From positions 1 through 28,005 of the forward strand of contig JAYQLI010000001.1 in assembly GCA_038143065.1 (NCBI GenBank): 28,005 nucleotides of DNA, written 5' to 3'. Origin of the DNA: Rhodospirillales bacterium. GTDB lineage: Bacteria; Pseudomonadota; Alphaproteobacteria; Bin95. Made by a program: the position numbers and the translations under genes. A model generated the notes under the pieces. It worked only from the letters and a program-made list of their open reading frames with translations, was not told the origin of the DNA and made no database searches. Positions 1 to 21,597 of this stretch are shown here, in pieces (position 1 is the stretch's first letter; the number at the start of each line of letters is the position of its first letter).

Positions 1-253
1 GCAGCGAATGACTGCTTAGGAGCCCAAAGTGACCTTAAATACGCATTTTCCGAATGTCCATTTACTGAAACACTGAAACTGTTAAGCCGCTTAAACTTGC
101 AGTGCAGATTTCGGAAAACCTTACTATTTGGCGTGGGTTTCAGGGGGGTAAGATACTTACAGGCGACCGACATAACACGCTTCCATACACCTTCACTCTT
201 TACAGGAAAATTAAAAAAAATGACTGCGTTTTCTGCGTAGCGTACTCATCGTC

Positions 254-1499
254 TTACGAACGTAGCAATCGCTCGATCCCAGAAATTACGCCGGAACCAT
301 TTGCATCGTGTACTTGCCGGTGCGCTATTTTTGCCAAATAAACCGAATTTTTGGCAAATGGACCATCTATATAGATTGGCCCACTCGCGCCAATGGCATC
401 CATCGCTTCAGATGTTGCCTGTGCAAGAAAACCAGAAAGCAAGTCCATTCTTCTGTGTTTAGGTATTAGCGACGGATCAACAGCTGCTCCATTTTCATCC
501 GACAACCATGCGTTTTGGGCGTCGAAAATATCTTCGATTTTTTGTGGGTTCGGTTCCAGCCCACTCTTTTCAGGAAGGCCGCTAAAACGAGCAAGAATTT
601 CTCCGCCCATAAATCGAATGTTTGGAACAAAGTTTCCAAAAGGATCCAATGAGATCATCTGTCCAAACGCCAAATCTAGCGGCAGCTGATCAACATTCAG
701 AGCAAAAACACATATCCAAGTACCTGTCGATAACACCGTGACCGGCTCCACGTGGTCTAGGATAGAGGGCACCAATGCCAATGTGCTGTCATGACCGCCT
801 CCCAAAATCATCGGTGGGTTTGATTGCCTGAGGTATTGGCACAATTCGTCTCTTAGCGGTCCAATATTTGTTCCTGACTGTGAAAACGGCGGCATCAGCT
901 TCGGAAGGTTGAGATCAAGCGTTGGCAGATCAAGATAGTCTCCTGTTTGGAAGTTCCACAAATCTGTGTGGCAACTTGCGTAAGCAATTTCGCTGGTCGC
1001 AACACCTGACAACCAATGTGTCCAATATTGCGGCAGGAACAGTAATTGATCTACATCCCTCATTTTGCTGCGATGCGTATTCATTAGCCAATGTAATTGC
1101 GCACCCAAATGTAACCCTCGCGGCATCCTATGCGAACCTGTGATTGTAACATCGGACCTGATCGCGTCTATAAGCCGCCGCAGATTGATCTAAACCAGAA
1201 AAATCATAATCCATAATCGGCATAGCAAGATTACCATCCGACATGCAGGCAATTCCTGCACCATGGGTGGAAACCATGATAGCATCAATCGGCCCAGATT
1301 CCGAGAATTCAACCAAGGCTCCTATAATAAAGTCCATCAAGCCGGTAATGTCGTAATGCGGGTAAGGCCCGTTCGTTAATACTGTATTGGGCCTTGATCG
1401 AGTGTTGACTGTCAGATCATTGAGCGGTTCACGCAAAATCATTTTTGCATTGGTCTTGCCAAGGTCAAATATAACCAAACGTTGGACGGAAAACGACAT
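254..1499 (-). CDS. FGGY-family carbohydrate kinase (rhamnulo/fuculokinase-like), split by a frameshift near 1130-1165
   Basis: N-terminal ATP-binding motif VIFDLGKTNAK and STHGAG in ORF 1128..1499; PQYW..WLSG, SCHTDLW, GGHDS, VLSTGTW and DGPFA in ORF 254..1126. Confidence 0.8.
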
Positions 1500-2528
1500 C
1501 TAAGCACTCTGTTCATTTAAGGCTTGGCGGTATTTTTCAGAATCCCAATTGAGCAATTCAAACTGTTCTTTCTCGTTGAAATAGGCAATGTCACTGTCTT
1601 CTGGTAAAACTGACAGTACATCACGCGCACAACGCAATAACGCCTCACTGCCTAAGTATGCGTCATCTCGCAGCGCCACCCCGACCCCGCGAACGATAAC
1701 AGCACAGTTAAAAGGTAACGGCGATTTGGCAAGTTGCGCTAAATCTTCCAGAACCGTGTCCTGCAGTTCTAAAACGGGTAACGCAGGCCCAAGAAAGACC
1801 AATATATCAGGGGTAAAACTTCCCTTTGACAGGATATTTATCCAAGTTTCATCATGGGCAATCTGATGGCTGATTGGGTCTTTCGCCCACGAGAAACCGG
1901 AACCTTTAAGGGCCAACTGGGGGCTTTTGGCACAGGCATGGTCGCCACAGTATTTTTTGCTAAACGACGTAAGACTCTTTGTGTGACGCTATCTATTTCT
2001 TCCGGTATTATAGCGACAATCGGTGAAAGTGATTTCTGAAAAAAAATCATGCGTCTGAGCGGCCTTGCTGACTACACGACTTAGTGGAACTCCAGGCTTC
2101 ACACCAAGGGACAAAGGCCCAGTCGAGCCCTTCCAAGCATTTTTAGACGCTGCTCTACATCTTGTTGGATAAGAATTGCGATAACATCCACGCAGTGGCT
2201 ATTACACAACAAAACGGTAAGGGATGGCAGCATGCATGGGCGCCTCAACCGAAGGACGCACCGCTACACTTTCGTTACAAACACATGCGCGCATGTCGGC
2301 ATCTGTTGCCTCAGGGTTTTCTAATACGACAGTATCCGGCTCAATCCATAAGACAAAAAACTGCTCTTATCATCGACATCACTCAACCAGCGGCCGATGC
2401 TTTGATCACATCACACCATCTGATTTTACCGAGGTGTTTCCGCCAGCGACTTGGATCATTTGCGGTTGGGTGCCAAGAAAACGTGAATAAGCAATCAACC
2501 GGTCCAAATCTGTTGATAAATTCTGCAT
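1500..2528 (-). CDS. Class II aldolase/adducin-family protein (RhaD-like), several frameshifts
   Basis: Manual translation from ATG at 2528 (AGGAAG upstream) gives MQNLSTDLDRLIAYSRFLGTQPQMIQVAGGNTSVK...IKAS; further on it gives RPSVE..HA and H-x-H; the C-terminal ORF has TPDILVFLG and ELLNWDSEKYRQ. It abuts the kinase. Confidence 0.75.
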
Positions 2529-2838
2529 GGTTTCTTCCTAGGTTTTGCAAGTAGATGCGTTCTTTAACAAACTAGTCTTACGTCGGTGTTTTCCTTTAAC
2601 AAGGAACTTTTATAATCAAAGAGTCGTCGGCGTGATCACAAGTCAACTACACAATAGAAAAGAACAGATGGGTAGACAAATTCGACACACCCATCGCATT
2701 TAAACCTTCAGCCGTTAACGACTGGATTGTCTCATAGCGGTTGATTTATGTCTTCAGTTTCGAAGGTCCGCTTTGCTCTCTGGGTTTTGAAGTGAGACAT
2801 TGGGCCTCAAACCTACAGGATGATATTACCTTCCAGGT

Positions 2839-3428
2839 TTAGAACGTAAAGTCATCATCTTGATGATTGGTGTGATGAACAGATCTCTTACCTGTATCTG
2901 TACGATGCCCATCTCTGTAGTCCACTGCTCAGTAAAGAAATCATATCAAACCCAGTCATGCTGATAGCTGGCCATGTACTCATTGAAGATAGCGCTGCGT
3001 CCTTTCTTAGGACCACTTGCTGTTAGTAAGGCGTTTATGACTTGAGTTGGTAGATGCCATTGGTGGGTTAGGGTATCAAGCAACACATGCAGATGCTTCT
3101 TTTCTGTTAAGACAAGCACATGGGCATTATCAGCAGTGGCATTGATATCCCCCTTAAGGTGCATCCTGTAGATGAGGCTGTTGGGGTGTTCAGCCAGTAG
3201 CTCTTCTATTAACTGGTAATGCTCGGGCTTAGTTAAAGCACTACGATCATACTGCCTTTTATAAGCTTCTCGGGAGCGCTTAGGCTTTACTGCATAGTAC
3301 TCTACTCTGTCTTTATGGCTCTTATGAAAGCTCAGCTTAATGCGCCCTGAGGTAAACACCTGAAGGCTATAGCCTTGGTAGGTTTCTAGGGTCTCTTGGG
3401 AGAGCTTTGGATCAATATACTTGGTCAT
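2839..3428 (-). CDS. Hypothetical protein of the small integrase element (C-terminus extended past an indel to ...HQDDDFTF*)
   Basis: 160-aa ORF 2946..3428; an alternative frame continues to TAA at 2839-2841. Co-oriented with and downstream of the integrase. Confidence 0.6.
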
Positions 3429-3493
3429 TCTAAATTATCTTTCTGTTCTTAATACAAAAATAAAAAACACCTCAGGAAAGGCTCCTAAGGCAG

Positions 3494-3600
3494 GGTTAAA
3501 GGGTAAGCTGTAAGGGGTAATTCGTAAGACGTAATATGTAAGTCGTAATACTTAATTCGTAATATATAATACATAAGGGTTTGGGTGTTCCCAACACCCT
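3494..3600. repeat. 12 tandem heptamers NNNTAA(G/T/A) followed by a hairpin (AGGGTTTGGG-TGTT-CCCAACACCCT); putative origin or protein-binding array
   Basis: ggttaaa gggtaag ctgtaag gggtaat tcgtaag acgtaat atgtaag tcgtaat acttaat tcgtaat atataat acataag (3494-3577), with TAA in exact 7-bp phase; stem-loop 3576-3600 has one mismatch. Confidence 0.75.
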
Positions 3601-3810: not shown

Positions 3811-4530
3811 TTAACTCCACACCTTTTCCATATGCTCCCTCATGACGTCTAGGGCATAGCCTGAGCCATAGTTGGCAGCGACTGTGTTAGAGCCATGCCC
3901 TAGGATGGCCATGGAGATGGCCTCCGGGCAGCCTGTATTCCTCAGCTTGTCCTTCATGCGGTGGCGTAGTGAATGCATGGTAAGCTTCTTATCTGTGATT
4001 ATGGTTCTGAGGCGCTTCATCAGCATGGCTGAGGCAGCATCATTGCCACGAGGACGAGCGTAGTTGGGGAATATAGACTCCCCATCCTCTTTGCCTTTCC
4101 TGTGCTCCTGCAGTGTCTCTGCTGCTCTGTGGCTCAGTGGGAGTGTTCTATGTGACCCCTTGGTCTTGAGACCTCTAATGTTGTTGGGGCGTATGGTTAC
4201 TGAGCGCTCCTGCAGGTCCACGTCTTGGACTTCTAGCCCTACAATCTCCGACAGCCTTGCACCTGTATCTATCAAGGTGATGAAGAGTGCCCAGGCAAGT
4301 GGGTCATTCTGATAGCAGGGAGTTGCTATGGCAATATGCTCGTCCGTCAGTGGATGCCTGTCCTCGACGCTGGCCCCTGCCCCTTTTATCTTCAGCCCGT
4401 TGAATACGTTTGGAATGGTAAGGCTATGCTCTGTTATCACGTAGTTCACGGCTGCCTTTACAACGGCCACATTCCTCAGCACCGAGTTGGGCTTCATTCG
4501 CTCCAGCTCGTAGTCTTGTCTTAGCCGCTT
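3811..4530 (-). CDS. Tyrosine recombinase/phage integrase, catalytic C-terminal part (N-terminus missing)
   Basis: Catalytic motifs TGARLSE (R), LKT (K), HSLRH (HxxR), LGH and NYG (Y). Homology is lost at the IS3 remnant just upstream. Confidence 0.88.
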   Translation of the reverse strand, partial: KRLRQDYELERMKPNSVLRNVAVVKAAVNYVITEHSLTIPNVFNGLKIKGAGASVEDRHPLTDEHIAIATPCYQNDPLAWALFITLIDTGARLSEIVGLEVQDVDLQERSVTIRPNNIRGLKTKGSHRTLPLSHRAAETLQEHRKGKEDGESIFPNYARPRGNDAASAMLMKRLRTIITDKKLTMHSLRHRMKDKLRNTGCPEAISMAILGHGSNTVAANYGSGYALDVMREHMEKVWS

Positions 4531-4535
4531 AGAAC

Positions 4536-4697
4536 TGTACCAGTATTTTTTGGCATAGGAGAATTTTAGGATAACTCGGAAGTGTTATTCTGATGAAGAT
4601 GTGTTGAAGTTATTGCGCGAAATTGATGTTCGTTTGGACGTTGTGAGTGCGTGTCGCAAAGCTGGGATCTCAGACAAAGTCATTATTACTGGCGTAA
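4536..4697 (+). mobile_element. IS3-family remnant: probable left end (TG...) plus degenerate OrfA HTH fragment
   Basis: Translation YSDEDVLKLLREIDVRLDVVSACRKAGISDK-(fs)-YYW is typical of IS3 OrfA. It begins with TGTACCAGTATTTTTTGGCA. No OrfB. Confidence 0.65.
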
Positions 4698-4733
4698 TCC
4701 GGCTGCGCGCGGCCTCAATCTAAGCGATACCGA

Positions 4734-5908
4734 TCATTCCGCGGCCTTTGATGCAGGCGCGGGCACTGGCACTAGCATTCGCGCCAGATAGCGTTGGAAT
4801 TCCCAAATGGTCTGCTCTTTTGGTGATAGACGCCCCGGTTGCGCCGACAACGCTGCCGCATTGCGCGCAATGGCCGCCGTGATTGGTTTGTCCTCATCGT
4901 TTATCGCGTGAAAGCTGGCCTTCAGTTCGTCCACACGCTCGTCAAATTCCGCGCCCTGGGGCATAGCGTCGGGGTGAACATCAACGCCCCAAAAAACACG
5001 CACTTTGTCCGTTTCAATTGGCATAAGGGACATCCAGAACGTCCGCTCGGCCGACACGGACGCCATCTGCGCCGGAAACGCGCCAAAGAGCGGCACGCTA
5101 TTGACCTCATCCTCCGTCAGCTTCGGGTTCGGGTTTGCCATGGCTTCGCTGTATTCAAATGCGACACCAGAATTGCGCCCTTGTGTATACAGGCAATAGC
5201 CCGGACCACCGGTAACGACATGGGCGTGTTGTGTGGGCAAAACTGGCTCAACGGTTCTGCTGTGGACGGCAAACAGGTGATAAGGCTCCATGAAATTCTG
5301 AAAGAGAATTTTCCAGTTGGTGTCCCAGATCTCATCTACCCGAAACAAGGTGCGATAGCTGGCAACATCGTAGTTGGCCAGAAGCTCTGTCAGAGGCGCC
5401 AAACGCGGCGTCAAGGGCTGTGCTGAAGGATCGAGATTAACGTACACCCACCCGAGCCATTCTTCGACGGCGAATTGCGGCAGGTGACAATCCCGTTTGT
5501 CAAAATTGTCTCGCATATAGGGGCCCCGATCAGCTGACCATTCAGTGTGTAGGTCCAGGCATGATAGGGACAGGTGATTTTGCCGCCAATCGTGCCCTCG
5601 CCTTCCAGAAGGCTCATCATCCGGTGGCGGCAAATGTTGGACATCGCACGCAACACACCGTCATGGTCGCGTAAGACAACAACCTCGTCGCGACTTATGG
5701 TCATGACCCGGTAATCACCGGGCTTTTCAAACTCATCCGAACGACCCACGCAAATCCATTCCCGATTGAAAATCGCATCGCGCTCCAGTTCGAGAAACGT
5801 CTGAGATGTATAGACCTGAGGTGGTGTGGCCTCGGACTGATCTTCAGGCAAAGCGGCGTTCGCAGTCAGTGCGTCAAGCAATTCGGAAAGTGGCATATTG
5901 GGCTGCAT
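4734..5908 (-). CDS. Rieske non-heme iron oxygenase alpha subunit (choline monooxygenase/N-demethylase-like group), frameshift near 5520
   Basis: Rieske ligands NICRHR and CPYHAWTY in 5411..5908; mononuclear Fe motif NWK..QNFMEPYHLFAVH and a distal ED in 4734..5633. The junction lies in a GGGGCCCC run. Confidence 0.9.
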
Positions 5909-5924
5909 GATAGGACCTCAATCG

Positions 5925-7100
5925 CTAGGTTTGGCGCTCTCGCGCCAAGCGCTGTGTAAGTTTGCGCAGAAAATCCAACCCCTGCGCCAGTTCTTCGACT
6001 TCGATGTATTCATCGGCCTTGTGGGCCCGACTGATGTCGCCAGGACCAAAGACTACGGTCGAATAATCAGCATCACTGAAATACCCCGCATCCGTCCCGA
6101 AAGAGACCACATCCGTATCGTTCAACCCTGTGATCGCGCTCACGAATTCAGTCGCCTTTGCCGCGTTTCGATCATCAAGCGGTGGGACGGCCACTTCTGT
6201 GATGATGCATATATTCGCTTCATCGCTGACCGCGCGCATCGCGGGCAGGATTTCGGAATTTGCAAAGGCCTGGATTTCCGCGATAGCCAAGGCGCCATCC
6301 TCACCTGGGATCGGACGATACTCCCAATCGAAATTGCACCAACCAGCCGTCGCATTTCGCGCTGCACCTCCCTCAATCATGCCGACATTGAAGGTGGAAT
6401 AAGGCGGGCTGTAGGCTGACCCTTTGATAGGATTGGTCCTGCGCTGTGCATTCATATCCTCAATCTTCGCGATAAACTTCATCGCCGCCGTGATTGCGTT
6501 TGCGCCACAGCTGGGATCGCAGGAATGCATCTCTTTGCCTATGATTTCTGTGCGCATTTCATAGCCGCCCTTGTGGCCGGTCACAATTTTCATCTGCGTT
6601 GGCTCGCCCACGATGACGACCTCCGGGCGATAGACAAGCCCGGATAAGCTTTCGAGCAGGACGGGCATCCCAAACCCGCCTATTTCCTCGTCAAACGTAA
6701 ATGCGATATGAATAGGCTTTGTTAGGTGCGCAGCTTTGAACAAAGGCACTGAGGCCAGAACACAGGCCAAAAACCCCTTCATGTCAACCGATCCGCGGCC
6801 ATAAAGCTTGTCCCCTTTGCGGGTTAGCTTGAAGGGGTCGCTCGACCAGGTCTGACCCTCAACCGGGACGACATCTGTGTGTCCATTAAGGACGACCCCA
6901 CCATCAATCTCTGGCCCTATTGTGGCAAAGATATTCGCACGTTCTTTGACACCGTCAAAACTAAGATTGGATGGGATGCCATGCTGTTCCAGGTAATCCT
7001 GAATATACCCGACAATGCCATGGGTCGGGCGACCCGAAACGCTTTCAAACCCGACAAGTGCTTCGAGGATTTCTATAGTGGTGTCCAGCGTCCTAAGCAT
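5925..7100 (-). CDS. argE: M20A acetylornithine deacetylase (ArgE-like) amidohydrolase
   Basis: NGHTDVVP, GRGSVDMKGF, DEEIG, GEPT and AHKADE motifs. Start at 7100 chosen because of the AGAGGA RBS; the ORF extends to 7124. Confidence 0.88.
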   Translation of the reverse strand: MLRTLDTTIEILEALVGFESVSGRPTHGIVGYIQDYLEQHGIPSNLSFDGVKERANIFATIGPEIDGGVVLNGHTDVVPVEGQTWSSDPFKLTRKGDKLYGRGSVDMKGFLACVLASVPLFKAAHLTKPIHIAFTFDEEIGGFGMPVLLESLSGLVYRPEVVIVGEPTQMKIVTGHKGGYEMRTEIIGKEMHSCDPSCGANAITAAMKFIAKIEDMNAQRRTNPIKGSAYSPPYSTFNVGMIEGGAARNATAGWCNFDWEYRPIPGEDGALAIAEIQAFANSEILPAMRAVSDEANICIITEVAVPPLDDRNAAKATEFVSAITGLNDTDVVSFGTDAGYFSDADYSTVVFGPGDISRAHKADEYIEVEELAQGLDFLRKLTQRLARERQT

Positions 7101-7120
7101 AACTATGTCCTCTGATGGTT

Positions 7121-7819
7121 TCATGGCTCTGCCAGAAATCGTCCGAGAAGCGTGAGCATGCGCTGAAGATCAATACTCCGGTAATGACCCACACTGCGAA
7201 TGTCATTATCCACCATAGCGGCGCGGATGTTCTCGAGCTCATTGAGCTGACCGGCATGCGCCCGTTCCCACCCAAACTGAGGAAGAAACGTGTACCAGAT
7301 ACGAGCCACGCGGTAGTACATCAACTCTGTGATCTCACAGAGCGGGGCGTTGCCAGTCAGATCAGACAATAACTGTTGCAGGTCATTCGCGATGAGCGCC
7401 AGTTCATCGAAGGCCCCTGTTTTATCGGCCAGATTTCGGGTGCGATCCACCAACACGTCGATCTTTGTAATATAATCTGGTGTGATCTCGACCGGCGACA
7501 ACTCTCCCATTAACTCGGCCAGACGTTTGCGCAGATCATAAATCTGTTTGAATGTCTTAAGATCAATGTCGGTCACAATTGTTCCAACGCCATTTTTGAT
7601 CGTCACCAGCCCCATGAACTCAAGCCGGTGAAAAACCCGACGGATCGGTGTGCGGCTGATGCCGAGCTCTTTGGCCAGTGCCCCCTCGCTCAGCACGGTT
7701 CCAGGTGGATAGGTCAAAAGGCAAATGCGATCACGCAATTCGCAATAGATCCGCTCAAACCGCTCAGCGCCAGTTTCATTTTCGGATACAGTGGTGATTT
7801 TGTCGGCCACTTTGACCAT
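7121..7819 (-). CDS. GntR-family (FadR/FCD) transcriptional regulator
   Basis: wHTH YPPGTVLSEGALAKELGISRTPIR...LEFMGLV...GVGTIV and a helical FCD-like C-domain. AGGAG RBS before ATG at 7819. Confidence 0.88.
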   Translation of the reverse strand: MVKVADKITTVSENETGAERFERIYCELRDRICLLTYPPGTVLSEGALAKELGISRTPIRRVFHRLEFMGLVTIKNGVGTIVTDIDLKTFKQIYDLRKRLAELMGELSPVEITPDYITKIDVLVDRTRNLADKTGAFDELALIANDLQQLLSDLTGNAPLCEITELMYYRVARIWYTFLPQFGWERAHAGQLNELENIRAAMVDNDIRSVGHYRSIDLQRMLTLLGRFLAEP

Positions 7820-7924
7820 GCGCGTCTCCTGACTGATAGTTTCGTGAGGCGCGATTGCCCAGTGCGCCGTTTCATCTTCCATTGACACGACTCAGCATTA
7901 GGGATGAACATAGCTAAAATCAAG

Positions 7925-7934
7925 TTGTATACAG
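7925..7934. promoter_or_regulatory. Candidate GntR operator palindrome TGTATACA in the divergent promoter region
   Basis: TTGTATACAG lies between the divergent gntR and racemase starts and fits the GT-N-AC GntR consensus. A TTGACA is at 7882-7887. Confidence 0.45.
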
Positions 7935-7942
7935 GTCGCGCC

Positions 7943-8734
7943 ATGGCAGATGTTTTTCAAGCAGAGGAAACGAGACGGTTTCAAAGCACATCGGTTTACG
8001 AAGACATTGCGCTCGACAATGGTCCTGGGAGACATCGTATCGGGCTGATTGTACTCAGCAATGATTACACGGTCGAACGTGACTTCATGAAGATGCGACC
8101 AAATGATGAGGTCGCGATCTTCACCACACGAATTGCTAATACTCCAGATTGCACCGTGAGTTCCTTGCGTGAAATGGCTCCAAAGATTGCAGATGCGGCG
8201 GACCTTTTGATCCCTGACGGACGGCTTGACACGGTGGCTTATGCCTGCACGTCGGGCTCAGTAGTTATCGGTTATGACACCATAAAGAGCCACATTCATT
8301 CCGTTCGCCCCGATGCCGCCTGCATCACCCCGATCACCGCATCCTTGGCCGCACTTGACTCCTTTGGCGTAGATAAACTGGCGGTCCTGACGCCCTATGT
8401 TGATGAAGTGAATGCCGCCATTGCCGACCACCTGCGAGCTGCAGGCAAGACAATCGGCGCTTTTTCCTCCTTCCGTATAGAGGACAATGAAGAGATGGCT
8501 GCCCTCACTGGTGAGGCGATTTTCAAGGCTGCCAAAAAAGCCGACACAGCAGCTGCAGACGCCCTGTTCATTTCTTGTACCGCGATCCGCGCTGTCGAGG
8601 TCATCGACCGCCTAGAACAGGCTCTGGGTAAGCCGGTGATCACCGCTAATCAGGCAATGTTCTGGCAGGCCCTGCGCGTTGCGGGCTGTAATGCAAAGAT
8701 CGAAGGCTATGGCGCGCTGCTGAGAAAATTTTGA
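7943..8734 (+). CDS. Asp/Glu/hydantoin racemase - maleate isomerase family protein (EutA-like)
   Basis: RIGLIVLSND, two catalytic-type cysteines (YACTSGS, ISCTAIR), VLTPY and GKPVITANQA. The ORF can start at 7904. Confidence 0.85.
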   Translation: MADVFQAEETRRFQSTSVYEDIALDNGPGRHRIGLIVLSNDYTVERDFMKMRPNDEVAIFTTRIANTPDCTVSSLREMAPKIADAADLLIPDGRLDTVAYACTSGSVVIGYDTIKSHIHSVRPDAACITPITASLAALDSFGVDKLAVLTPYVDEVNAAIADHLRAAGKTIGAFSSFRIEDNEEMAALTGEAIFKAAKKADTAAADALFISCTAIRAVEVIDRLEQALGKPVITANQAMFWQALRVAGCNAKIEGYGALLRKF

Positions 8735-8756
8735 TCGGACGATAAGGAAATATGCG

Positions 8757-9638
8757 ATGAACCACATGGAGATCATGTCCAACCCTCCAAGAGTGCTAAA
8801 CCAGGACGAGCGGGCCTTCTATTTTGATCAAGGCTACATCGTTAAGGAGCGTGCGATTGGGTCGGATTGGCTAGGTCGGCTGAATACGGCAACGGCGGCA
8901 CTTGTTGAGACCACGCGCAGCATGAAGTGTTCCACCCAAACCTATGATCTGGATGCCGGCCACACTGCCGAAAACCCAAGGTTGCGCAGGATTGCCTATC
9001 TGGATGACCTAGATCCGGTGTTCTGGGAATTTTGTAAGGAATCCCCACTGACTGATCTGGCCGCTGATCTGCTTGGCCCGAATGTCCGTTTTCGCGAATG
9101 CATGATCAACTTCAAATGGGCCGGAGGTGGCCAGGAGGTAAAATGGCATCAGGATTTTCCCTTCTACCCTCTGACCAACACCACAGTGGCCCAGTTTCTG
9201 GTTTGCCTTAACGATGTCGGCCCGGAGCAAGGCCCATTGCAGGTTGTGCCCAAAAGCCATGAGGGGCCGTTCTATGATCACTATGACAAGGACGACAATT
9301 GGCTGGGCTACATTCAGGACGACAAGCTGGCTGAGGCGGGCCTGGACACGGCAGTGGACTTGACTGGACCAGCAGGTACGATCACCGTACACCACTGCGC
9401 CACATTGCATGCCTCGCGCGCAAACGTAAGCAAACTGGGTCGCCCAGTCCTGATTGTAACCTACTGCGCCTGTGATGCGGTCGGATACACAGCCGTGACA
9501 TATCCCACGTCGAACTGCCTCAAGGTGGTGCGTGGCGAGGAGACGAAGTTCGCTCGGCTGGAGCCAATGAACATGCGCATGCCGCCGGATTGGTCCGATG
9601 GCTACACATCCATTTTTGAGCATCAGGAAAAGGTCTAG
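8757..9638 (+). CDS. PhyH-family Fe(II)/2-oxoglutarate dioxygenase (#1)
   Basis: WHQD (HxD), GPLQVVPKSH, distal His in TLHASRAN, and 2OG-binding Arg in GRP. Confidence 0.88.
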   Translation: MNHMEIMSNPPRVLNQDERAFYFDQGYIVKERAIGSDWLGRLNTATAALVETTRSMKCSTQTYDLDAGHTAENPRLRRIAYLDDLDPVFWEFCKESPLTDLAADLLGPNVRFRECMINFKWAGGGQEVKWHQDFPFYPLTNTTVAQFLVCLNDVGPEQGPLQVVPKSHEGPFYDHYDKDDNWLGYIQDDKLAEAGLDTAVDLTGPAGTITVHHCATLHASRANVSKLGRPVLIVTYCACDAVGYTAVTYPTSNCLKVVRGEETKFARLEPMNMRMPPDWSDGYTSIFEHQEKV

Positions 9639-9641
9639 ACC

Positions 9642-10817
9642 ATGGCGCCACCGTTTTCACGCGAAGAATATGCGACTCGTCTGATACGTGTCCGAAACGC
9701 CATGCAGTCCAAAGAGCTGGACGTGCTTGTGATCGGCGATCCAGCCAACATAAACTGGTTGACCGGATATGATGCCTGGTCATTTTATACGCCGCAAATC
9801 ATGGTCGTCGGGCTTGAGCTGGATCCGACCTGGTTAGGCCGTGAAATGGATGCCGGAGCTGCAGATTTCACAACCTATTTACCGCCCGAACAGATTGTCC
9901 CCTTCCCTGAAACGCATGTGCAACAGGCGACGTTCCACGCAGCCCAGTACATGGGCGACTGGATGAAAGTGAAGGGATTGAATGGCAAACGGATCGGCTA
10001 TGAAAGCGACGTCTATTTCCTGACGCCTGCGGCGGTCAGCCATCTGATGGACCGCACGCCAAACAGCGAGTGGACGGATTGTGGGCTGCTGGTGAACTGG
10101 CAACGTCTGACCAAAAGCCCGGCGGAAATCAGGATGTTGCAACAGGCCTCTGTCATTGCGGGCAAGGCCATGCAAACGGCTTATGATGGCGTGCGGCCAG
10201 GCGTGCGGCAATGTGATCTGATGGCCGATGTGGTCGCTGCGCAAATTCGGGGGACGCCAGAGTTCGGCGGTGAGCAAACCGCACTGCATCCACTGGTACT
10301 GGCAGGGGAGGCCGCTTCAACCGCCCATCCTATGTGGACCGACGCACCGTTTGAAAAGGACCAGACCATTGCATTTGAACTGGGCGGATGCCGTAAACGT
10401 TACAATGTAGGTCTAGCACGAACCGTGCACCTAGGTGATCCGCCACAGATCCTTATGAACACCGCCAAAGCCGTTGGCGAAGGCATGGACGAAGTTCTGT
10501 CCGCGATGAAGGCCGGTGCCCTGTGTTGCGATGTGCATGCCGCCTGGCAGGCGGTGCTAGACCAATACGGGCTCGAGAAGAAAAGCCGTATCGGCTATTC
10601 CATCGGGGCCGGTTATTCGCCCGACTGGGGTGAACACACGATCAGCTTCCGCCCCGATGACGGTACCGCACTGCCGGAAAACGCCGTGGTACACATCATT
10701 CTGGGCATGTGGATGGACGGCTGGGGCATGGAATTGAGCGAAACAATTCATGTGCGCGCCAATGATGCGGCGTGCCTCACCCAATTCCCGCGCAACGTTC
10801 ATGTCATAGACATTTGA
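9642..10817 (+). CDS. doeA: M24-family ectoine hydrolase-like protein (DoeA/EutD homolog)
   Basis: DPANINWLTGYDAWSFY, LVNWQRLTKS.AEI, AHPMW, FELGGC..RY and RIGYSIG..Y.PDWGEHT match EutD/DoeA signatures as I recall them. The substrate is not established. Confidence 0.82.
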   Translation: MAPPFSREEYATRLIRVRNAMQSKELDVLVIGDPANINWLTGYDAWSFYTPQIMVVGLELDPTWLGREMDAGAADFTTYLPPEQIVPFPETHVQQATFHAAQYMGDWMKVKGLNGKRIGYESDVYFLTPAAVSHLMDRTPNSEWTDCGLLVNWQRLTKSPAEIRMLQQASVIAGKAMQTAYDGVRPGVRQCDLMADVVAAQIRGTPEFGGEQTALHPLVLAGEAASTAHPMWTDAPFEKDQTIAFELGGCRKRYNVGLARTVHLGDPPQILMNTAKAVGEGMDEVLSAMKAGALCCDVHAAWQAVLDQYGLEKKSRIGYSIGAGYSPDWGEHTISFRPDDGTALPENAVVHIILGMWMDGWGMELSETIHVRANDAACLTQFPRNVHVIDI

Positions 10818-10830
10818 AAGGACAAAAGAT

Positions 10831-11658
10831 ATGGGAAAAAAGCTTACCCAAGCTCAGATTGACGCCTTCCACCGTGATGGATTTGTTTCGCCCATAGATG
10901 TGTTTTCTGAGGCTGAGGCACTGCGCCTACGCGTGGAACTTGAAGCCGCTGAAGCTAAGTGGCCCGAAGCTTTTCAGGGCGCTGCACGTAACAACGCGCA
11001 TCTGAATCTGATGTGCCTAGATGGGATCGTACACAATCCGGTCCTTTTGGACGCGATTGAGGATCTCATCGGCCCTGACATCCTGAGCTATGGAACTGTC
11101 TTGTTCATCAAAGAACCCAAGGACCCTGGTTTTGTCAGCTGGCATCAGGACGCGCGCTACATGGGGCTTGAGCCGCATATCGGCATCACCGCCTGGGTCG
11201 CTTTGACAGAGGCCAATGATGAAAATGGATGCATGCAGATGATCCCTGGAAGCCACGGAGAGATCAGAGACCACAACGACACGTTTGGCGAAGAAAACAT
11301 TCTGACGCGCGGCCAAGAGGTAGAGAATGTGGATGCAAGCACGGCCGTGTCCACCGCCTTGCGTCCCGGTCAAATGTCGATTCACAGTGCCCAGGTCATT
11401 CACAGTTCGCAACCCAACCGCAGCAATGACCGTCGCATAGGCTTTGTCATTCAGCCGTATATGCCCCCTCACGTGCAACAGACGATCACGCCGACAGGCG
11501 CACAACTTGTCAGGGGCAGCGATCCGTTTGGAAACTTTGAACACCTGCCCCGTCCGACTTCCGATATGGATCCTGATGATATCAAAAAGCGCGATTGGGT
11601 GAATGAAACCTGGTCAGACATTCTGTACCACGGTGCCAAGATGCGGCGAGATTATTAG
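10831..11658 (+). CDS. PhyH-family Fe(II)/2-oxoglutarate dioxygenase (#2)
   Basis: LFIKEP...VSWHQD, AWVAL..A..ENGCM..IPGSH, IHSSQPNRSNDRRIG. Confidence 0.88.
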   Translation: MGKKLTQAQIDAFHRDGFVSPIDVFSEAEALRLRVELEAAEAKWPEAFQGAARNNAHLNLMCLDGIVHNPVLLDAIEDLIGPDILSYGTVLFIKEPKDPGFVSWHQDARYMGLEPHIGITAWVALTEANDENGCMQMIPGSHGEIRDHNDTFGEENILTRGQEVENVDASTAVSTALRPGQMSIHSAQVIHSSQPNRSNDRRIGFVIQPYMPPHVQQTITPTGAQLVRGSDPFGNFEHLPRPTSDMDPDDIKKRDWVNETWSDILYHGAKMRRDY

Positions 11659-11819
11659 CAAGATTGATGAAGCGCGCGGCTTGATTCGCAAAAGTTAGCA
11701 GTGTCTGCAAAGCCCCAGTTCAGTCAGTCTTCAACTTCTCAAACGCTGCGAACTTCTGGTATGCGGGCGCGATTACGCCGTCTAAAGTGATCCAAAGTTT
11801 ACATGCGGTCGTAATCGAT

Positions 11820-12569
11820 ATGTGTCGCGACTAAACACGCGCGTGGAAACAAAGCTTCCCCACACTCCAGCAGATAACTTTTACCTTTTGCGCCCTCATA
11901 TTCTTCTTCGTTCGTGATGAAGTTCAAGACTTTATCATTGAGCAGCAACTTGAAACTCAAAGTGACGCTGAAAATGCAGGGCTGACTTGCATACAAAAAC
12001 TCGAAAAGAAAGGCGTGGAGTTTGTTGAGTTACAGAAATTTGGAAAGCCTAAATGCATAGTCAAAGAGCCGGTCCGAATTGAAAATTATCCCACAACCAA
12101 ACTTTCTAGTCCGGTTACATTAAATTGTTCAACAGCACTCAACCTAGCAAATTGGTTAGAGGAAATCGGCGCTAGTGAAGTTGAACATTTTGGATCTTAC
12201 AATTGTCGTACCATTCGAGGCAGCTCAATCATGAGTCAGCATAGCTATGGGTCGGGAATCGATATCGCCAGAATTAACGGGGCCTCTGTTTTATTTGATT
12301 GGACAAATTCGGCTGAAAAGTCGGAGTTTCTAAAACATGCCGGAAAAACAGCCTGCAACCATTTTTCCAATATCCTTACGCCGGATTACAATCAGGCGCA
12401 TAAAGATCATTTCCATCTTGATGACGGGTATTTCTCAGCATGTGAAAAGCCAACTGATACTAAATTAACAACCGCATTAAAGAAATTAGTCCGGCATATT
12501 TTTCACACATCATATTTCTCCCAAACCTTGCAGGCGGAATTTCGCATCATGAACAGACCAAAGTCCTGA
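11820..12569 (+). CDS. Extensin-like C-terminal domain protein with an N-terminal hydrophobic anchor (start uncertain)
   Basis: GSYNCR, SQHSYGSGIDI and LTPDYNQAHKDHFHLD motifs. The frame stays open upstream of 12015 through CALIFFFV. Confidence 0.75.
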
Positions 12570-12935
12570 CCCCCAACAATACAATATCCGACTAACCGGT
12601 CATAAGTTTTTGCTCCCGTAAGTTCACACGTTGCCTCTGCCCATAAAAAATTCTGAGCAACTTCATTAGCACTCTCACCTTCGCGGGTACACTCAGGGCA
12701 ATCCAACGCTGAAAGCCTAATAGCTATTCCATTTACTTCGATTGTATCCGTCCCTGACGTGCGTTACCCTGCCCTTGAGTAGCGTTCCAGGTTTTGGTAG
12801 CTCTGACTTATTAATCTTTTTGTGGCAGTGGTACTTTTGAGCACCTGAATGACAACCATTTCTATCAAGTCCGCCGCTATGAGCGGGTAAAAGTTCTAAA
12901 AGGAGAATAAAGATTAAAGCTAAGACGTATTTCAT
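12503..12935 (-). CDS. Secreted YHYH-domain plus thermonuclease (SNase-like) protein, frameshift near 12745
   Basis: Signal peptide, HSGGLDRNGCH...YHCH, then GRVTHVRDG-(fs)-TIEVNGIAIRLSALDCPE and TYDRLVGYC. Confidence 0.75.
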
Positions 12936-13742
12936 TCAAACTTTATCCAAACCCTCAAAAAAACGATCTAACTCATCATTATCCATATGCACCAAATGGG
13001 ATGTTTCAGGAAAAACCCCGGTATCGACGTCGTTTACAAATTCTTTAAATGCAGAAATGCGTTCTAGCTGAAGTCGATCATACTCCGCTCTGAAGTCACG
13101 ATAAACTTTTGAATGGCGAGGGATATGACCTTCTGTGTATCCAAGAATATCATTCGAAAGAGATATTGCGCATCGCAGCCGGCGCCCGCACCCATCGACC
13201 AGACAAGCAAACTTGTGCGTTTCGAAAGTTCTGTTGCTACCTCAACTGGTACAACTTCTAATTCAACAGCAATTGCGCCTGCATCTTCATAGGATTTTAT
13301 CTGCTCGAAAAGCTGAAGCGCTTCTGCCGCTGTTTTCCCTACTGCCTTAAAACCACCCGTCAAGTCGCTCTTGAAGGTACAAGACCAACATGGCCAACAA
13401 CAGGTATGAATTCTTTCGCTAGCATTTCCACTGTAGAAAAAGAACCAGAGCAATAAACTGCATCAGCACCGCATTCTACAGCAGAGTTACACCATTTTAA
13501 ATATTCATGAGGTGTTCCACATTCAGTATGCGTTTGTCCCGCCATAGAAAAAATACTTGGCGCAACTTCACGGTATCGCGGATGAAACAAAACCTCTGCT
13601 GGAACTGAAGCGATATCAATGCCCGCCGCCTCTGCTGCTGCCGCCTCATCAAGAGAAAAGTACCTTAACATTGTAAGCTGCTTTTGCCCTTTTAAGGCTC
13701 GTAAATCCGATACTGTTGAAGCTTACGTTGTTCTTTGGTCAT
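12936..13742 (-). CDS. panB: Divergent 3-methyl-2-oxobutanoate hydroxymethyltransferase (PanB-like), several frameshifts
   Basis: LRALKGQKQLTML, PVVGHVGLVPS, GGFKAVGKT, EDAGA.AVELEVVP and MGAGAGCDAQYL, spread across ORFs 13360..13671 and 13064..13453. Confidence 0.75.
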
Positions 13743-13747
13743 GAAAA

Positions 13748-14935
13748 TTACTCCTCTCGTCTCACCTCGTCAAACTTTGCAGCCATAGTTGGATTTTTTC
13801 GAGTCAACCTTTTAACAGAGACATCTTGCGCTTTGTCGTTGGCAAGCCGAAGATTTCTGTCAGTACTTAACAATGCTTCTTTAGTCTTTTGCAGATGAGA
13901 AATTGATTTATCAATTTCAGCTATTGCCGTGGTAAATTTCTTCGAAGCTAGTTCATAATTACGTCCGAAAGCTGTTTTGAATGCGTCTAATTCTGTTTCA
14001 AAATTCGTGATATCTATGTTTTGCTCTCTTACAAGAGCCAACTCTGTTTTTGTATTTTTAATGAATTCAAAGCAGCGTTTCTTAGCAAAGTGATCATCGG
14101 AATGAAAAATTGCGGCCTGATGACATACATTTTTGGATATCGATAAAACACATCCACTATCCCAGTGTTATAGAGCTCACTTTCCGGCTCCAGTAAAGAA
14201 ACCAACACTGCATATTCGCATCCCTTTTCGTTTCGATCTTTATCCAACTCTTGTAGAAAATCTTCGTTCTTTCTTTTAGTTGCGGTCGTATCCATTTCAT
14301 TTTTCATCTAAAACATAATTGAAATGATTTCAGTTCCATTTTCATCGTGATCTTTAAAGATATAGTCACCTTTGCTGCCCGATCTGGCATCATTATCTTT
14401 CTCAAAAAAAGCGGATTGAAAGGCTGTAGACCGTAATTTGTTAAATTCGGTCTCACAATGCTGCTCCAAAGTTTCTCCAACCATCTTTGTTGAGAGTTTA
14501 GCCTTCATGTCTTTCAGACGCTCAATGGCTTCATCACGATCATTTGCGTTTTTTATATTTGTCTTTGAGCAGGTTTTCTGAATTCTCTTTCTCTAATTTT
14601 GAATTTTTAAGATCGTTTTTTAAATTGTCTCGCTCTTTTTCCATTTCGCGAACAGCCTTATCAACCGTTGCTTGGACTGAACTTTCCTTTTCTCGTATCG
14701 TTGATCTTAAGCGTTCAATTTCCACCTCTTTTTCTGCCTTTAGGTTTTGAATAGCGCTATCGGCATCCATTTTGGCCAGCTTAAGCTCAGACGCCTGTTC
14801 TCTTTCTTTTTGGGTCAACCGCTCGTTGAGCTGGTTTTCGAACTCATGATCATAAACCTGCTTGAGAATATTTGCATATCCGGTTTCATCAACTTTGAAC
14901 GCTTTACTACAGTGTGGGCACTTAATTTCATTCAT
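13748..14935 (-). CDS. DUF2130 domain-containing coiled-coil protein (four ORF fragments)
   Basis: MNEIKCPHC, coiled coil, [57 protein letters not shown] and [10 protein letters not shown]. Confidence 0.82.
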
Positions 14936-14990
14936 ATTGAACCGCCTTTTTTACAAAAAGTTGTTACTTTCTTTTGGTTTGATAATTACT

Positions 14991-15494
14991 TTAAATGAAT
15001 GATCGAGATCTTCTATAAGCTGCCTCGATAAAACGCTCTGATTTTGCAGAAGCAGTGCAGAGTTTATGATAAGACGGCCTTATTCCAACTCGTCCCAAAT
15101 CTAATCGATCTGCGTCCCAGCAAACTTGCACTGTAATATCAGCATCAACATACCCATCAGAATGATAACGCAAAGCTTCATCAAGAAGCTCCATTTCTTC
15201 TTCGTTTAATTCAAATAGTGTCCCACGAATGGCCTGTGCGTAATCAGCCGCTCTAGAACCGTGTTCTGGATCTCTGTCCTCGTTTCGGCGCTGGGTGTCA
15301 TGGAGAAGACAGAAAAGTTCGACGACCTTAAGATTGGCATTCTCCGTGTCAGCCAAAAGTCTTCCATTATGAAGCACCCGCATCCAATGGGCATACCCAT
15401 GAAACCCATCGTGATCCATTTGATAGGCTCGACAGCAATGCTCAACAAACGGCTGCGTCACTATCTCGGATGTAATTGGTTTGAGTAGCTCCAT
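14991..15494 (-). CDS. HD-domain phosphohydrolase
   Basis: HGYAHWMRV, LLHDTQR, HGSRAA and CWDADRLDLGRVG. Confidence 0.82.
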   Translation of the reverse strand: MELLKPITSEIVTQPFVEHCCRAYQMDHDGFHGYAHWMRVLHNGRLLADTENANLKVVELFCLLHDTQRRNEDRDPEHGSRAADYAQAIRGTLFELNEEEMELLDEALRYHSDGYVDADITVQVCWDADRLDLGRVGIRPSYHKLCTASAKSERFIEAAYRRSRSFI

Positions 15495-15534
15495 CTGGCA
15501 ATCTTGGAGTGAGAAGGGCTCAATTTCAAGTCAA

Positions 15535-15787
15535 CTACGATCTTCCAAAAATAATCCATCCATTCACCCTCCCTAGCGTCCAGCTTTTTTTCAAAGCAAT
15601 CAAGGACTCCGGAGAGCCACGACGACGCAGCCGGGACACGCGTGGATTATATCGGCCGTAAAATTCCATCTGTTCGTCTTCTGGAATATTGCCTTCAATG
15701 TATCTAAACCGTTCGGGTAAAGCCACTCTTCCCAATCGCCGTGATTTACGATTTTTTGATATCACCATTATACCAAATTTTTGGCAT
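15535..15787 (-). CDS. Small hypothetical protein (frameshifted; start MPKIWYNG at 15787)
   Basis: ATG lies 9 nt after the GCGGAG of the 44-bp repeat; partial ORF 15535..15768. Confidence 0.4.
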
Positions 15788-15796
15788 GAGATTTAT

Positions 15797-15840
15797 CTCC
15801 GCTTTAGTGCTTTAGGCTGGATGCCAGGGCGCACAAGTTG
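15797..15840 (-). repeat. 44-bp leader repeat, copy 1
   Basis: 40/44 identical to 16234-16277; ends in GGAG just upstream of an ATG. Confidence 0.85.
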
Positions 15841-15883
15841 GTGGTTAAATGCCCGTTAGTTACTCAAGAAAAGCTATCAAATT

Positions 15884-16223
15884 TCAGTGAAATTTCTGCT
15901 TCTTGTAAAATTCTGACACTACTTTTTCCTGCCATAAAGGCGAGACATACTCCGTGATCATTTCATATTGCCCAAGAATTTCAGCATCTGTAATTTCAAA
16001 TATAGTTTTCTTTCGCAACAACAGCTCCAGAGCGTTATTCAAAAGGTTTTTGCCTTTCAGACAAGGCCTCAATTTTAGCACGCCCTAAGGCATGCCAAAC
16101 TACCACCAATGAAATATCGTCTCTGTTTTCAAGCCAATTGAAATATGTATCAGGATCGTTTGTTTCACCATTCTCATCAGGCCACGCCTTAATGAGGTCT
16201 TCAAGTTCTTGTTTAGTAAGCAT
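15884..16223 (-). CDS. Small acidic hypothetical protein (two fragments, one frameshift)
   Basis: Overlapping ORFs 16035..16223 and 15884..16081; GGAG RBS supplied by repeat copy 2. Confidence 0.5.
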
Positions 16224-16233
16224 AGGTTTCTGG

Positions 16234-16277
16234 CTCCGCTTTAGAGCTTTAGGCAGGATGCCAAGGCGCTCAAGTTG
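16234..16277 (-). repeat. 44-bp leader repeat, copy 2
   Basis: 40/44 identical to 15797-15840. Confidence 0.85.
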
Positions 16278-16615
16278 AAGAATTAAATCAGCCTAGTTTA
16301 GTTATCAGAAATTCATTTATTGGTTCCAGAGTCGTTCCTCTATTGAGTCACACGCCAGTGTAGGACATGATGTGAGACCAATCGGCCAACCTTCTAAGTT
16401 ATTTTCACCCTCGCTAACTTTGATTCCAAAAACCACCACAAAACCCAATATGATCGCATAATCAACGTATTTTTCATAGAAAAACTCTCCAAACAAGAGG
16501 GGAAATCTAATGACTTCATACACTTCTTATTATCATACTTTTCTTAATATAAATATATCAAAATAATTCTAAAAAAATATTAAATCAGGTAACTTTTACC
16601 AACTACAAAATCACC

Positions 16616-17423: not shown

Positions 17424-17583
17424 GAAGATACCCTACCCGTTTCATTCCAAAATAGCTCTCCAATAAGCAGGAATCTGCCCATGAAAATGGAATCGTTGTT
17501 TTTATTTATTTTATGTATCAAATTAACTGTTTTCATAACGATAAGCTCGAAAAAATTGGGCACAGCAGGTTGAGCATAACAAT

Positions 17584-18364: not shown

Positions 18365-18524
18365 AGATGCAAGTATTTTAACCTGATCAATCATAACCAG
18401 TTTTTGAATGTTCTGAGGCTTGCAATCACCGTGCTAATAGCCAATAGTTCTAACCTTTTATGCAGATTGCGGCGAGGGTTCATCTTCAGGGCCTAAAAAG
18501 AAGTTTTTCCAATTTTAGCAAGCT

Positions 18525-19323: not shown

Positions 19324-19363
19324 AGGGTTCTCCTTTATAATTTTGAAACTCAACAGAAGAGAA

Positions 19364-19391: not shown

Positions 19392-19440
19392 CCATTTCTG
19401 TTTTTAAAATTTTTTAGTTAGATTTTTCTTAACGCCAAAA

Positions 19441-21588: not shown

Positions 21589-21597
21589 GAGATATTA

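Follow-up and report, generated by a model that had tools for sequence, protein, structure and literature searches.

Ectoines are abundant nitrogen-rich marine solutes, and the locus described here raises the question of whether a cluster that joins a relative of the ectoine hydrolase DoeA/EutD to an ArgE-type deacylase and three oxygenases acts on ectoine, on a relative of ectoine, or on something else. The cluster consists of seven genes in a 28,005-bp stretch of DNA (hereafter, the window), which is the entire contig C1 in the genome assembly of a Rhodospirillales bacterium (52 contigs, 97.6% complete, 5.5% contamination). A first-pass annotation of this DNA had described a compact divergent unit and proposed that it degrades a methylated or otherwise substituted ectoine-like cyclic compound. 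We find a real, patchily distributed variant of ectoine-type catabolism, which that annotation had right in outline and over-interpreted in detail. The more specific reading that we favour, and to which we would give somewhat less than an even chance, is that the segment carries a paralogue of the ectoine/hydroxyectoine catabolic module to which oxygenases have been added, with a substituted (hydroxylated and/or N-methylated) ectoine relative, rather than ectoine, as its likeliest substrate.

A divergent seven-gene unit

The two divergent arms of the unit are as compact as first described, with intra-arm gaps of 16, −4 (an overlap), 22, 3, and 13 nt (Table 1). Family assignments were based on Pfam and NCBIfam profile scores against curated cut-offs, and these upheld the earlier calls for the GntR-family regulator, the ArgE-type M20 deacylase, the Rieske oxygenase, the EutA-like protein, the two PhyH dioxygenases, and the DoeA-like M24 hydrolase; only the FCD label given to the regulator is tentative, its C-terminal domain being weakly FCD-like with a score under the cut-off. 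A profile scan of the window genes detected no transporter, reductase, eutB, or eutC in the unit, and no reductase gene adjoins the Rieske gene. Elsewhere in the same genome, tblastn returned no EutC-like match above 60 bits, and the sole EutB-like match was only 41% identical. The reported absence of eutE/doeB and enuR holds for the window genes (the remainder of the genome was not searched for either), with an ArgE-type M20 in the EutE/DoeB position.

The canonical eutABCDE/doeAB cluster of Ruegeria pomeroyi, Sinorhizobium meliloti, and Halomonas elongata likewise combines a DoeA/EutD-fold hydrolase, a deacylase, and an EutA-type protein; EutB and an EutC-like protein are found in the nearest relatives of the window cluster, and the window M24 protein shares the loss of metal ligands seen in DoeA. 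In contrast to the canonical arrangement, the window M24 and EutA-like proteins do not reach the equivalog cut-offs, M24 falls in a clade of its own, an ArgE-type M20 stands for EutE/DoeB and a GntR regulator for EnuR/AsnC, three oxygenases are added, and neither an Ehu/Ueh transporter nor ssd/atf is present in the unit. That no operon of this composition is known agrees with our full-text literature searches, which returned no paper on this gene set and mostly did not reach subscription journals. In the accessible part of a recent EutD phylogeny (Boas Lichty et al. 2026), the terms ArgE, Rieske, dioxygenase, M24, and GntR do not appear.

Table 1. Features of the seven-gene unit and its borders, with positions in the window and supporting profile scores
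Feature	Position	Strand	Support
Truncated tyrosine recombinase, 228 amino acids, at the left segment edge	3811-4497	-	Pfam Phage_integrase 62.9 bits
Possible IS3-type transposase OrfA remnant (tentative)	4562-4699	+	HTH_Tnp_1 14.9 bits, E 0.032, under cut-off; cut off where Roseovarius-like homology starts
Transferred segment, 7.1-7.3 kb	4689-11774		Roseovarius-like homology and GC shift
Rieske oxygenase alpha subunit (GbcA/CntA/Stc2 type)	4734-5908	-	Pfam Rieske 77 bits, Ring_hydroxyl_A 76.9 bits
ArgE-type M20 deacylase, 399 amino acids	5925-7124	-	PRK07522 448.2 bits (cut-off 412), TIGR01892 356.2 bits (cut-off 297.7)
GntR-family regulator	7121-7888	-	GntR helix-turn-helix 58.5 bits (cut-off 27), FCD 22.5 bits (cut-off 24.3)
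Conserved intergenic block	7882-7933	+	TTGACA at 7882-7887, palindrome TGTATACA at 7926-7933
EutA-like protein, Asp/Glu/hydantoin racemase superfamily	7904-8734	+	TIGR02990 242.1 bits (cut-off 318)
PhyH1, Fe(II)/2-oxoglutarate dioxygenase	8757-9638	+	Pfam PhyH (PF05721) 99.6 bits
DoeA/EutD-like M24 hydrolase (M24 and Creatinase_N), window-type	9642-10817	+	TIGR02993 388.3 bits (cut-off 613)
PhyH2, Fe(II)/2-oxoglutarate dioxygenase	10831-11658	+	Pfam PhyH 97.2 bits

A DoeA-type M24 hydrolase outside the EutD clade

In a search against the Protein Data Bank (PDB), the window M24 protein scored 298 bits to DoeA (6twk) and 55 bits to prolidases. The five positions aligned to what we take to be the metal ligands of prolidase 1pv9 read E, G, A, I, and S, and the same five are also replaced in DoeA. 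Because the protein is closer to DoeA than to prolidases and all five ligand positions are substituted, it is predicted to be a DoeA-type, metal-free hydrolase and not a peptidase. As the first-pass annotation had supposed, it is not a bona fide EutD: its score is far from the TIGR02993 equivalog cut-off, as are those of other window-type members (376-415 bits), and it belongs to a clade of its own. Of the three TIGR02993 matches in the same genome, none exceeds the cut-off, which leaves no bona fide EutD elsewhere in it.

The clade was delimited in a tree of 92 M24 proteins (a quick LG+G4 search with Shimodaira–Hasegawa-like approximate likelihood ratio test (SH-aLRT) support and no bootstrap), comprising 76 window-type rows (SH-aLRT 99), 10 rows of a paralogue, M24b, on a long branch, and six EutD-type rows. 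A branch with support of 100 separates the window-type clade from the EutD-type rows, and the clade lies on long branches away from EutD (0.79 and 0.35 changes per column). The window-type family is large, the best 120 of 2958 matching clusters all being at least 70% identical, and it includes SAR116, Roseobacteraceae, Oceanospirillaceae, and Granulosicoccaceae, among others. At six loci (L054, L057, L058, L060, L061, and L068), a basal M24 branch (51-57% identity) is found beside genes for an Ldh_2-type reductase and enolase-superfamily proteins, or beside an MFS transporter and RidA, a context that recalls hydroxyproline or imino-acid catabolism and may perhaps reflect a different specificity.

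Genomes that combine the full cluster with canonical genes are informative as to the role of the window-type enzyme. Besides the cluster, Roseovarius albus CECT 7450 carries two EutD-type genes, in the arrangements eutB-eutC-eutD(785 bits)-eutE(600 bits) and eutB-eutC-eutD(792 bits)-lrp-ssadh, and the window-type cluster is therefore an extra system there. Other full-cluster genomes encode one EutD-type protein (G044, 678 bits), a copy scoring near the cut-off next to a class-III aminotransferase (G042, 584 bits; G043, 581 bits), or none (G045). Judged from this gene content, the EutD-type genes that accompany full clusters argue for a distinct role of window-type M24.

Conservation of the cluster

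A scan of one genome per species yielded 80 loci, 72 of which have a called window-type M24 gene. By tblastn over the 80 loci, all eight query pieces were recovered in the same gene order at L004, L005, L006, and L009, and partial sets were recovered at L048 (without the C-terminal Rieske piece), L011 (without ArgE), L053 (without EutA and PhyH1), and L074, whose contig ends within the M24 gene (match under 50% coverage), leaving M24 and PhyH2 uncounted there. Because the same gene order recurs at the first four loci and is near-complete at the other four, the seven-gene cluster is more than a chance association.

The seven genes are nonetheless conserved together only in a small group. Open reading frames (ORFs) within 7 kb of window-type M24 were clustered for all 72 loci and for the subset of 31 with at least 6.5 kb on both sides. 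ArgE is the commonest neighbour (39/72 loci overall, 17/31 in the subset), followed by PhyH2 (16/72, 11/31), PhyH1 (13/72, 8/31), GntR (9/72, 6/31), EutA-like (8/72, 6/31), Rieske (8/72, 4/31), and M24b (7/72, 4/31). All six partners are present at 4/72 loci (3/31), and no partner at 22/72 (7/31). The conserved core consists of M24 and ArgE, and the oxygenases, the EutA-like protein, and the GntR regulator are accessory.

The statement that eutB and eutC are absent is correct for the window copy and incorrect for the cluster type. At L004, L005, and L074, a bona fide eutB (TIGR02991 529 bits, cut-off 413) comes directly after the Rieske gene, and behind it lies a eutC-like gene (PRK08291 463 bits, cut-off 408; TIGR02992 454 bits, cut-off 472). 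The window remains homologous to these donor-type loci for only 27-45 nt after the stop codon of the Rieske gene, so that the match breaks off within the beginning of eutB. Since eutB and eutC directly follow the Rieske gene in the nearest loci, their absence is a feature of the truncated window copy. R. albus (L006) is a cultured carrier of the exact seven-gene unit without adjoining eutB or eutC, and L009 and L048 have a larger form, with M24b and a threonine-aldolase/GntG-like gene among the Rieske, ArgE, and GntR genes; the latter gene was seen at four loci.

Among about 160 annotated neighbour proteins, none belongs to an Ehu- or Ueh-type ectoine transporter; the transporters found instead are of the EamA, TAXI-TRAP, BCCT, and MFS types. 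Other variable neighbours include sulfatases, a class-III aminotransferase, and BetI with a small multidrug resistance (SMR) pump. Genes for formaldehyde handling are represented by an frmA-type dehydrogenase (602.8 bits) and an esterase at SAR116 loci and by GFA at L010, which fits a putative demethylation step. The SAR116/Puniceispirillum loci (L063-L067, L071-L073, and L083) share a conserved order of AcrB-type pump, amidase, (GMC oxidoreductase), frmA-type dehydrogenase, (esterase), (agmatinase family), M24, ArgE, EamA, and acyl-CoA dehydrogenase. We considered whether the agmatinase-family neighbour indicates a guanidino substrate and set this idea aside: in R. albus it adjoins a carboxynorspermidine decarboxylase gene, which points to polyamine synthesis, and it is probably unrelated.

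Partner enzymes and a proposed pathway

The ArgE-type M20 protein exceeds both equivalog cut-offs (Table 1), and we propose that it acts as an N-acyl-diamino-acid deacylase, for which the gene context argues for an N-acyl amino acid other than acetylornithine. The EutA-like protein scores under the TIGR02990 cut-off, as does its R. albus orthologue (233.7 bits). Its cysteines C115 and C225 are invariant in 8/8 sequences, and two cysteines have a catalytic role in the Asp/Glu/hydantoin racemase superfamily. Its solved relatives in the PDB search were maleate isomerase (68 bits) and arylmalonate decarboxylase (58 bits). The activities of EutABC themselves are stated to be unknown in the accessible part of PMC8739950.

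Both PhyH proteins share the fold and the HxD...H triad of ThoJ/TsaJ, EctD, GriE, and proline hydroxylase H11, with H131, D133, H218, and R229 invariant in 14/14 PhyH1 sequences and H105, D107, and H191 in 19/19 PhyH2 sequences. Because both have the HxD motif, they are predicted to be hydroxylases and not halogenases. Neither reaches the cut-off of the EctD model TIGR02408 (336.5 bits; PhyH1 46.7, PhyH2 23.4), although EctD (4mhr) is the best solved relative of PhyH1, with a weak 52 bits. For PhyH2, the closest solved entry by PDB sequence search is 6zyk (130.6 bits). Its predicted structure, built from a 19-row alignment (predicted local distance difference test (pLDDT) 94.3), matches 6zyl, which the fold search identifies as ThoJ (Z 33.3, root-mean-square deviation 2.1 over 252 residues, 34% identity), followed by SyrB2, GriE, proline hydroxylase H11, and EctD. 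The accessible part of PMC8153245 reports that ThoJ and TsaJ hydroxylate methylated histidine, in the form of peptide-bound dimethylhistidinium, in thioamitides.

The Rieske protein has the same domain pair and motifs as the quaternary-amine monooxygenases GbcA, CntA, and Stc2, and its closest solved relatives are CntA (137 bits) and Stc2 (3vca, 104 bits). It differs from them in having no reductase gene adjoining and in lying far below the cut-off of its best NCBIfam model, GbcA (NF058607), for which the intact orthologue of L074 scores 136.2 bits against 670. Catalytic motifs are intact in the PhyH1, PhyH2, Rieske, and EutA-like proteins.

Alongside the motifs, synteny, and phylogeny observed, family membership and gene context suggest a set of catalytic steps and a substrate. 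The divergently transcribed GntR-type regulator would repress the operon, with the conserved TGTATACA palindrome as a candidate operator. The DoeA-like M24 enzyme would open the ring of a cyclic amidine amino acid of the tetrahydropyrimidine type, yielding an N-alpha-acyl diamino acid, from which the ArgE-type M20 enzyme, in place of EutE/DoeB, would take off the acyl group. The EutA-like two-cysteine enzyme may epimerise the ring compound or its product, and the two PhyH dioxygenases would hydroxylate C-H bonds, PhyH2 probably as a beta-hydroxylase of the ring-opened acid. A natural fusion protein of 672 amino acids in a protein database (P0113) joins a window-type M24 (75% identity) to a PhyH domain, which supports a direct functional link between the putative ring opening and one of the hydroxylations. 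The Rieske oxygenase, with a reductase encoded elsewhere, would remove an N-methyl group or cleave a C-N bond beside a charged nitrogen. In fuller clusters, the resulting beta-hydroxy amino acid may pass to EutB and EutC or to the threonine-aldolase-like enzyme. Similar logic is found in the hydantoinase system, in which a ring-opening hydrolase is combined with an M20-family deacylase (N-carbamoyl-amino-acid amidohydrolase) and a hydantoin racemase of the Asp/Glu/hydantoin racemase superfamily; in that system, the hydrolase is an amidohydrolase and not of the pita-bread fold, the substrate is a hydantoin and not an amidine, and there are no oxygenases.

Ectoine or a relative of ectoine

Several points weigh against a substituted ectoine relative as the substrate. 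The unit has neither a transporter nor a Rieske reductase, and in this host the pathway may depend on host enzymes or be incomplete. The sequence analyses place no constraint on the order of the proposed steps. With the full gene set found at so few loci (4/72), the oxygenases may serve a side reaction, and the closest solved relative of PhyH2 acts on a peptide-bound methylated histidine and not on a diamino acid (PMC8153245, accessible part). Window-type M24 is also rare in cultured lineages (3 of 301 sampled genomes of the family of R. albus, at E <= 1e-130). Lastly, 10 of 15 carriers of window-type M24 have no other EutD-type gene, namely G045 and, with no gene above the EutD cut-off found, 4/5 further carriers and the 5/5 SAR116 genomes checked, in which window-type M24 is the only DoeA-like gene found. 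In these carriers, M24 and ArgE could therefore simply be the ectoine hydrolase and deacetylase.

This leads to the alternative that survives best, which we regard as possible if on the unlikely side: that the substrates are the usual ones and only the enzymes differ. M24 and ArgE would then represent a non-orthologous hydrolase and deacetylase for ectoine and 5-hydroxyectoine, the EutA-like protein (with EutB and EutC in fuller copies) would serve the hydroxylated branch, and the oxygenases would feed that branch, for instance by hydroxylating ectoine or N-acetyl-diaminobutyrate. Beyond the carriers without a second EutD-type gene, this alternative draws on a relative of the host, G014, which has no window-type M24 but a protein 39% identical to it that is a bona fide EutD (616 bits, cut-off 613). 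At this locus (L085, G014:C1:3409760-3413917), the EutD gene lies between an ArgE-type M20 gene (461.6 bits) and ehuB (EhuB 214 bits, cut-off 190.9), and ArgE-type enzymes therefore do partner EutD-type hydrolases. L085 is like the window unit in combining a DoeA-type hydrolase with a PRK07522-type M20, whose gene at L085 comes directly after that of the hydrolase, while ehuB faces the hydrolase gene; it differs in that its M24 is a bona fide EutD, that a gene for an ectoine-binding protein adjoins, and that no oxygenase was seen within the 4.2 kb examined. The arrangement suggests that, in this genome of the host family, a non-orthologous enzyme has replaced the ectoine deacetylase, and we found no description of it. 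The bona fide EutB behind the cluster at L004, L005, and L074 and the weak resemblance of PhyH1 to ectoine hydroxylase also point to ectoine, as does the chemistry of the deacylation, N-acetylornithine and N-acetyl-diaminobutyrate being one CH2 apart. On the other side, two canonical eut clusters are already present in R. albus, and one of these includes eutE, the annotated neighbours of window-type M24 showed no Ehu- or Ueh-type transporter, the regulator is of the GntR family and not EnuR or AsnC, a GbcA/CntA-type Rieske oxygenase has no obvious role on ectoine, and the M24 clade is separated from EutD by the long branches noted above.

If the favoured reading of a substituted ectoine relative is extended to the family as a whole, window-type M24 and ArgE may constitute an unrecognised, widespread marine pathway for an ectoine-like cyclic solute not yet described as a bacterial nutrient, perhaps an N-methylated or otherwise substituted tetrahydropyrimidine. 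The Rieske oxygenase, the two PhyH proteins, EutA, and EutB/EutC would then make up a new oxidative branch in which methyl groups are stripped off and the side chain is removed via a beta-hydroxy intermediate. We consider this extension rather doubtful.

Implications for surveys of ectoine catabolism

Surveys of ectoine catabolism require a juxtaposition of eutD and eutE, according to the accessible part of PMC8739950. The window unit has no such juxtaposition, and a true eutD-eutE pair is found elsewhere in R. albus. Because these surveys count eutD-eutE pairs only, they miss every locus of the window type. If window-type M24 acts on ectoine, estimates of ectoine-consuming bacteria would need revision; if it acts on another compound, the cluster would point to an unrecognised marine solute, and its metal-free M24 hydrolase, two PhyH hydroxylases, and Rieske oxygenase would have new specificities. 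With its intact seven-gene unit, the cultured R. albus CECT 7450 makes these possibilities directly testable.

Horizontal acquisition and integrity of the unit

The unit stands out from its surroundings in guanine-cytosine (GC) content, which is 0.51-0.57 in 1-kb windows over positions 4001-12000 and 0.37-0.47 in the rest of the window (genome, 0.473). By blastn, positions 4689-11774 are 81.6% identical to L004 and positions 4707-11662 are 83.8% identical to L005, both from uncultured Roseovarius, and the window M24 protein is nested within the Roseovarius group of the M24 tree (SH-aLRT 99). The nearest named proteins to the host EF-Tu belong to Rhodospirillales or to alphaproteobacterial metagenome-assembled genomes (97-93% identity). 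Window-type M24 was absent from all 40 relatives searched, including nine of the same genus and 15 of the same family. Based on the GC shift, the neighbouring mobile element (Table 1), the absence in relatives, and the nesting in a foreign clade, the segment was horizontally acquired from a Roseovarius-like donor into a different alphaproteobacterial host. Neither flanking direct repeats nor a tRNA gene could be detected around it.

In the window, the Rieske gene is split into two overlapping ORFs (5411-5908 and 4734-5633), linked by a −1 shift at a run of GGGGCCCC (positions ~5519-5526), where one C is missing behind position 5522. Residues 1-129 of the intact 391-amino-acid orthologue of L074 match one frame and residues 131-391 the other. 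We considered a pseudogene, and dropped this explanation in view of two observations. First, one more C behind 5522 is present in 4/4 metagenome contigs, from four public runs of four studies, and it restores an open Rieske frame of 391 amino acids that is 89.7% identical to L074 without gaps and keeps both the CxH...CxxH cluster motif and the mononuclear-iron ExxHxxxxH motif. Second, the same assembly breaks rpoB (G000:C35:2660058-2664196) into two frames at an A-run and likewise splits the second tuf copy (G000:C35:2655137-2656322). The Rieske break is therefore probably an assembly error, and with homopolymer indels in rpoB and tuf, frameshifts in this genome are, without reads, no proof of pseudogenes. 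At four further positions (5424, 7205, 7925, and 10412), the contigs of the four runs all share one substitution relative to the window, and all four contigs have one extra C behind 11686. These differences represent either more assembly errors or a strain-specific allele.

The mobile history of the segment raises the alternative that it is a non-functional passenger in this genome, i.e. a truncated fragment of a larger cluster, brought in by a mobile element and without useful expression. The homology break inside the start of eutB, the lack of a transporter, reductase, eutB, and eutC in the unit, the recombinase fragment, possible insertion sequence remnant, and gene fragments around it, and the absence of window-type M24 from all relatives searched (0/40) are all in keeping with such a passenger. 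We nevertheless consider it distinctly unlikely: the seven reading frames are all intact if the probable assembly error is discounted, R. albus retains the same seven-gene unit without adjoining eutB/eutC, and near-identical sequence recurs in nature. At least 95% of sampled words from positions 4600-7200 were found in 20 runs from eight studies (seawater, marine, aquatic, and estuary metagenomes), which argues that the sequence is maintained, and 4/4 runs examined gave a single contig of 7.26-7.36 kb spanning the whole unit with 4-5 substitutions.

Other classes of substrate and product

Improbable, in our assessment, is a substrate that is not an amidine at all, for instance an N-methylated amino acid or betaine of the proline-betaine/hydroxyproline, carnitine, or methylhistidine type, on which the Rieske and PhyH oxygenases would do the main work, with M24 and M20 acting on an N-acyl or peptide-like linkage. 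Such a substrate is suggested by the closest solved relatives of the Rieske protein, CntA and the stachydrine demethylase Stc2, by the likeness of the PhyH2 model to ThoJ and also to proline and leucine hydroxylases, and by the neighbours of M24, including BetI, an SMR pump, and a BCCT transporter at L014, L051, and L056, the formaldehyde-detoxification genes, and, beside the distant M24 clade, the Ldh_2 and enolase-superfamily genes typical of hydroxyproline routes. The hydrolase itself speaks against it, being far closer to DoeA than to prolidases and without all five of the metal ligands that M24 peptidases need, as does the association with EutA-like, EutB, and EutC proteins, the hydroxyectoine-utilisation trio. 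A biosynthetic or tailoring cluster for a hydroxylated or modified amino-acid derivative is highly improbable, since the absence of a transporter from the unit and the mostly biosynthetic PhyH relatives (ThoJ, SyrB2, GriE, and MysH) are set against the lack of any synthetase, methyltransferase, carrier protein, or exporter, a hydrolase, deacylase, dehydratase, and aldolase content that is catabolic in character, and a divergent GntR-type repressor of the kind usual for catabolic operons.

The region between the arms

The called start codons of GntR and EutA-like are 15 nt apart. Orthologue starts point to a GntR start at about 7819 (MVKVADK...) and possibly to an EutA-like start at 7943, which would leave 84-123 nt between the genes. 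The columns of the conserved intergenic block (Table 1) are invariant in 5/5 orthologous loci, including L006, where overall DNA identity is 73%. The window contains two occurrences of the TGTATACA pattern, where 0.23 would be expected, and the GT-N-AC form of this palindrome is usual for GntR operators. TTGACA and TGTATACA are a candidate promoter and GntR operator, although the conservation of the block may instead reflect a coding role, as part of a longer N-terminus of the EutA-like protein. A sigma-70 scan of the intergenic region returned one weak site only, inside gntR.

Flanking sequence

The metagenome contigs end at 4584-4639 and at 11850-11927, and sequencing depth rises sharply there, which identifies the flanks as repeated sequence. 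Paralogues of the truncated recombinase (34-77% identity) were found by tblastn on at least 10 other contigs (C2, C4, C12, C13, C14, C16, C34, C36, C41, and C50), and C2 also carries a 94% copy of an Extensin-like_C gene (12015-12569); the recombinase and Extensin-like_C repeats probably broke the assembly. The many short flank ORFs and the recombinase paralogues led us to consider an integron or cassette array, which we rejected after finding no repeated attC-like element, only two weak direct-repeat families and one inverted repeat.

The flanks (1-3500 and 12000-28005) contain few long ORFs and several gene fragments, which may reflect assembly indels or decayed genes. These include a 290-amino-acid piece of an FGGY kinase (254-1126), panB as two ORFs (13064-13671), and a VWA fragment (20457-20759). 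The stretches of about 15500-18500 and 22060-25430 are free of ORFs of 100 amino acids or more. A 29-nt inverted repeat, 97% complementary and with a 16-nt spacer, is located at 21598-21671, just upstream of an ORF at 21674-22057.

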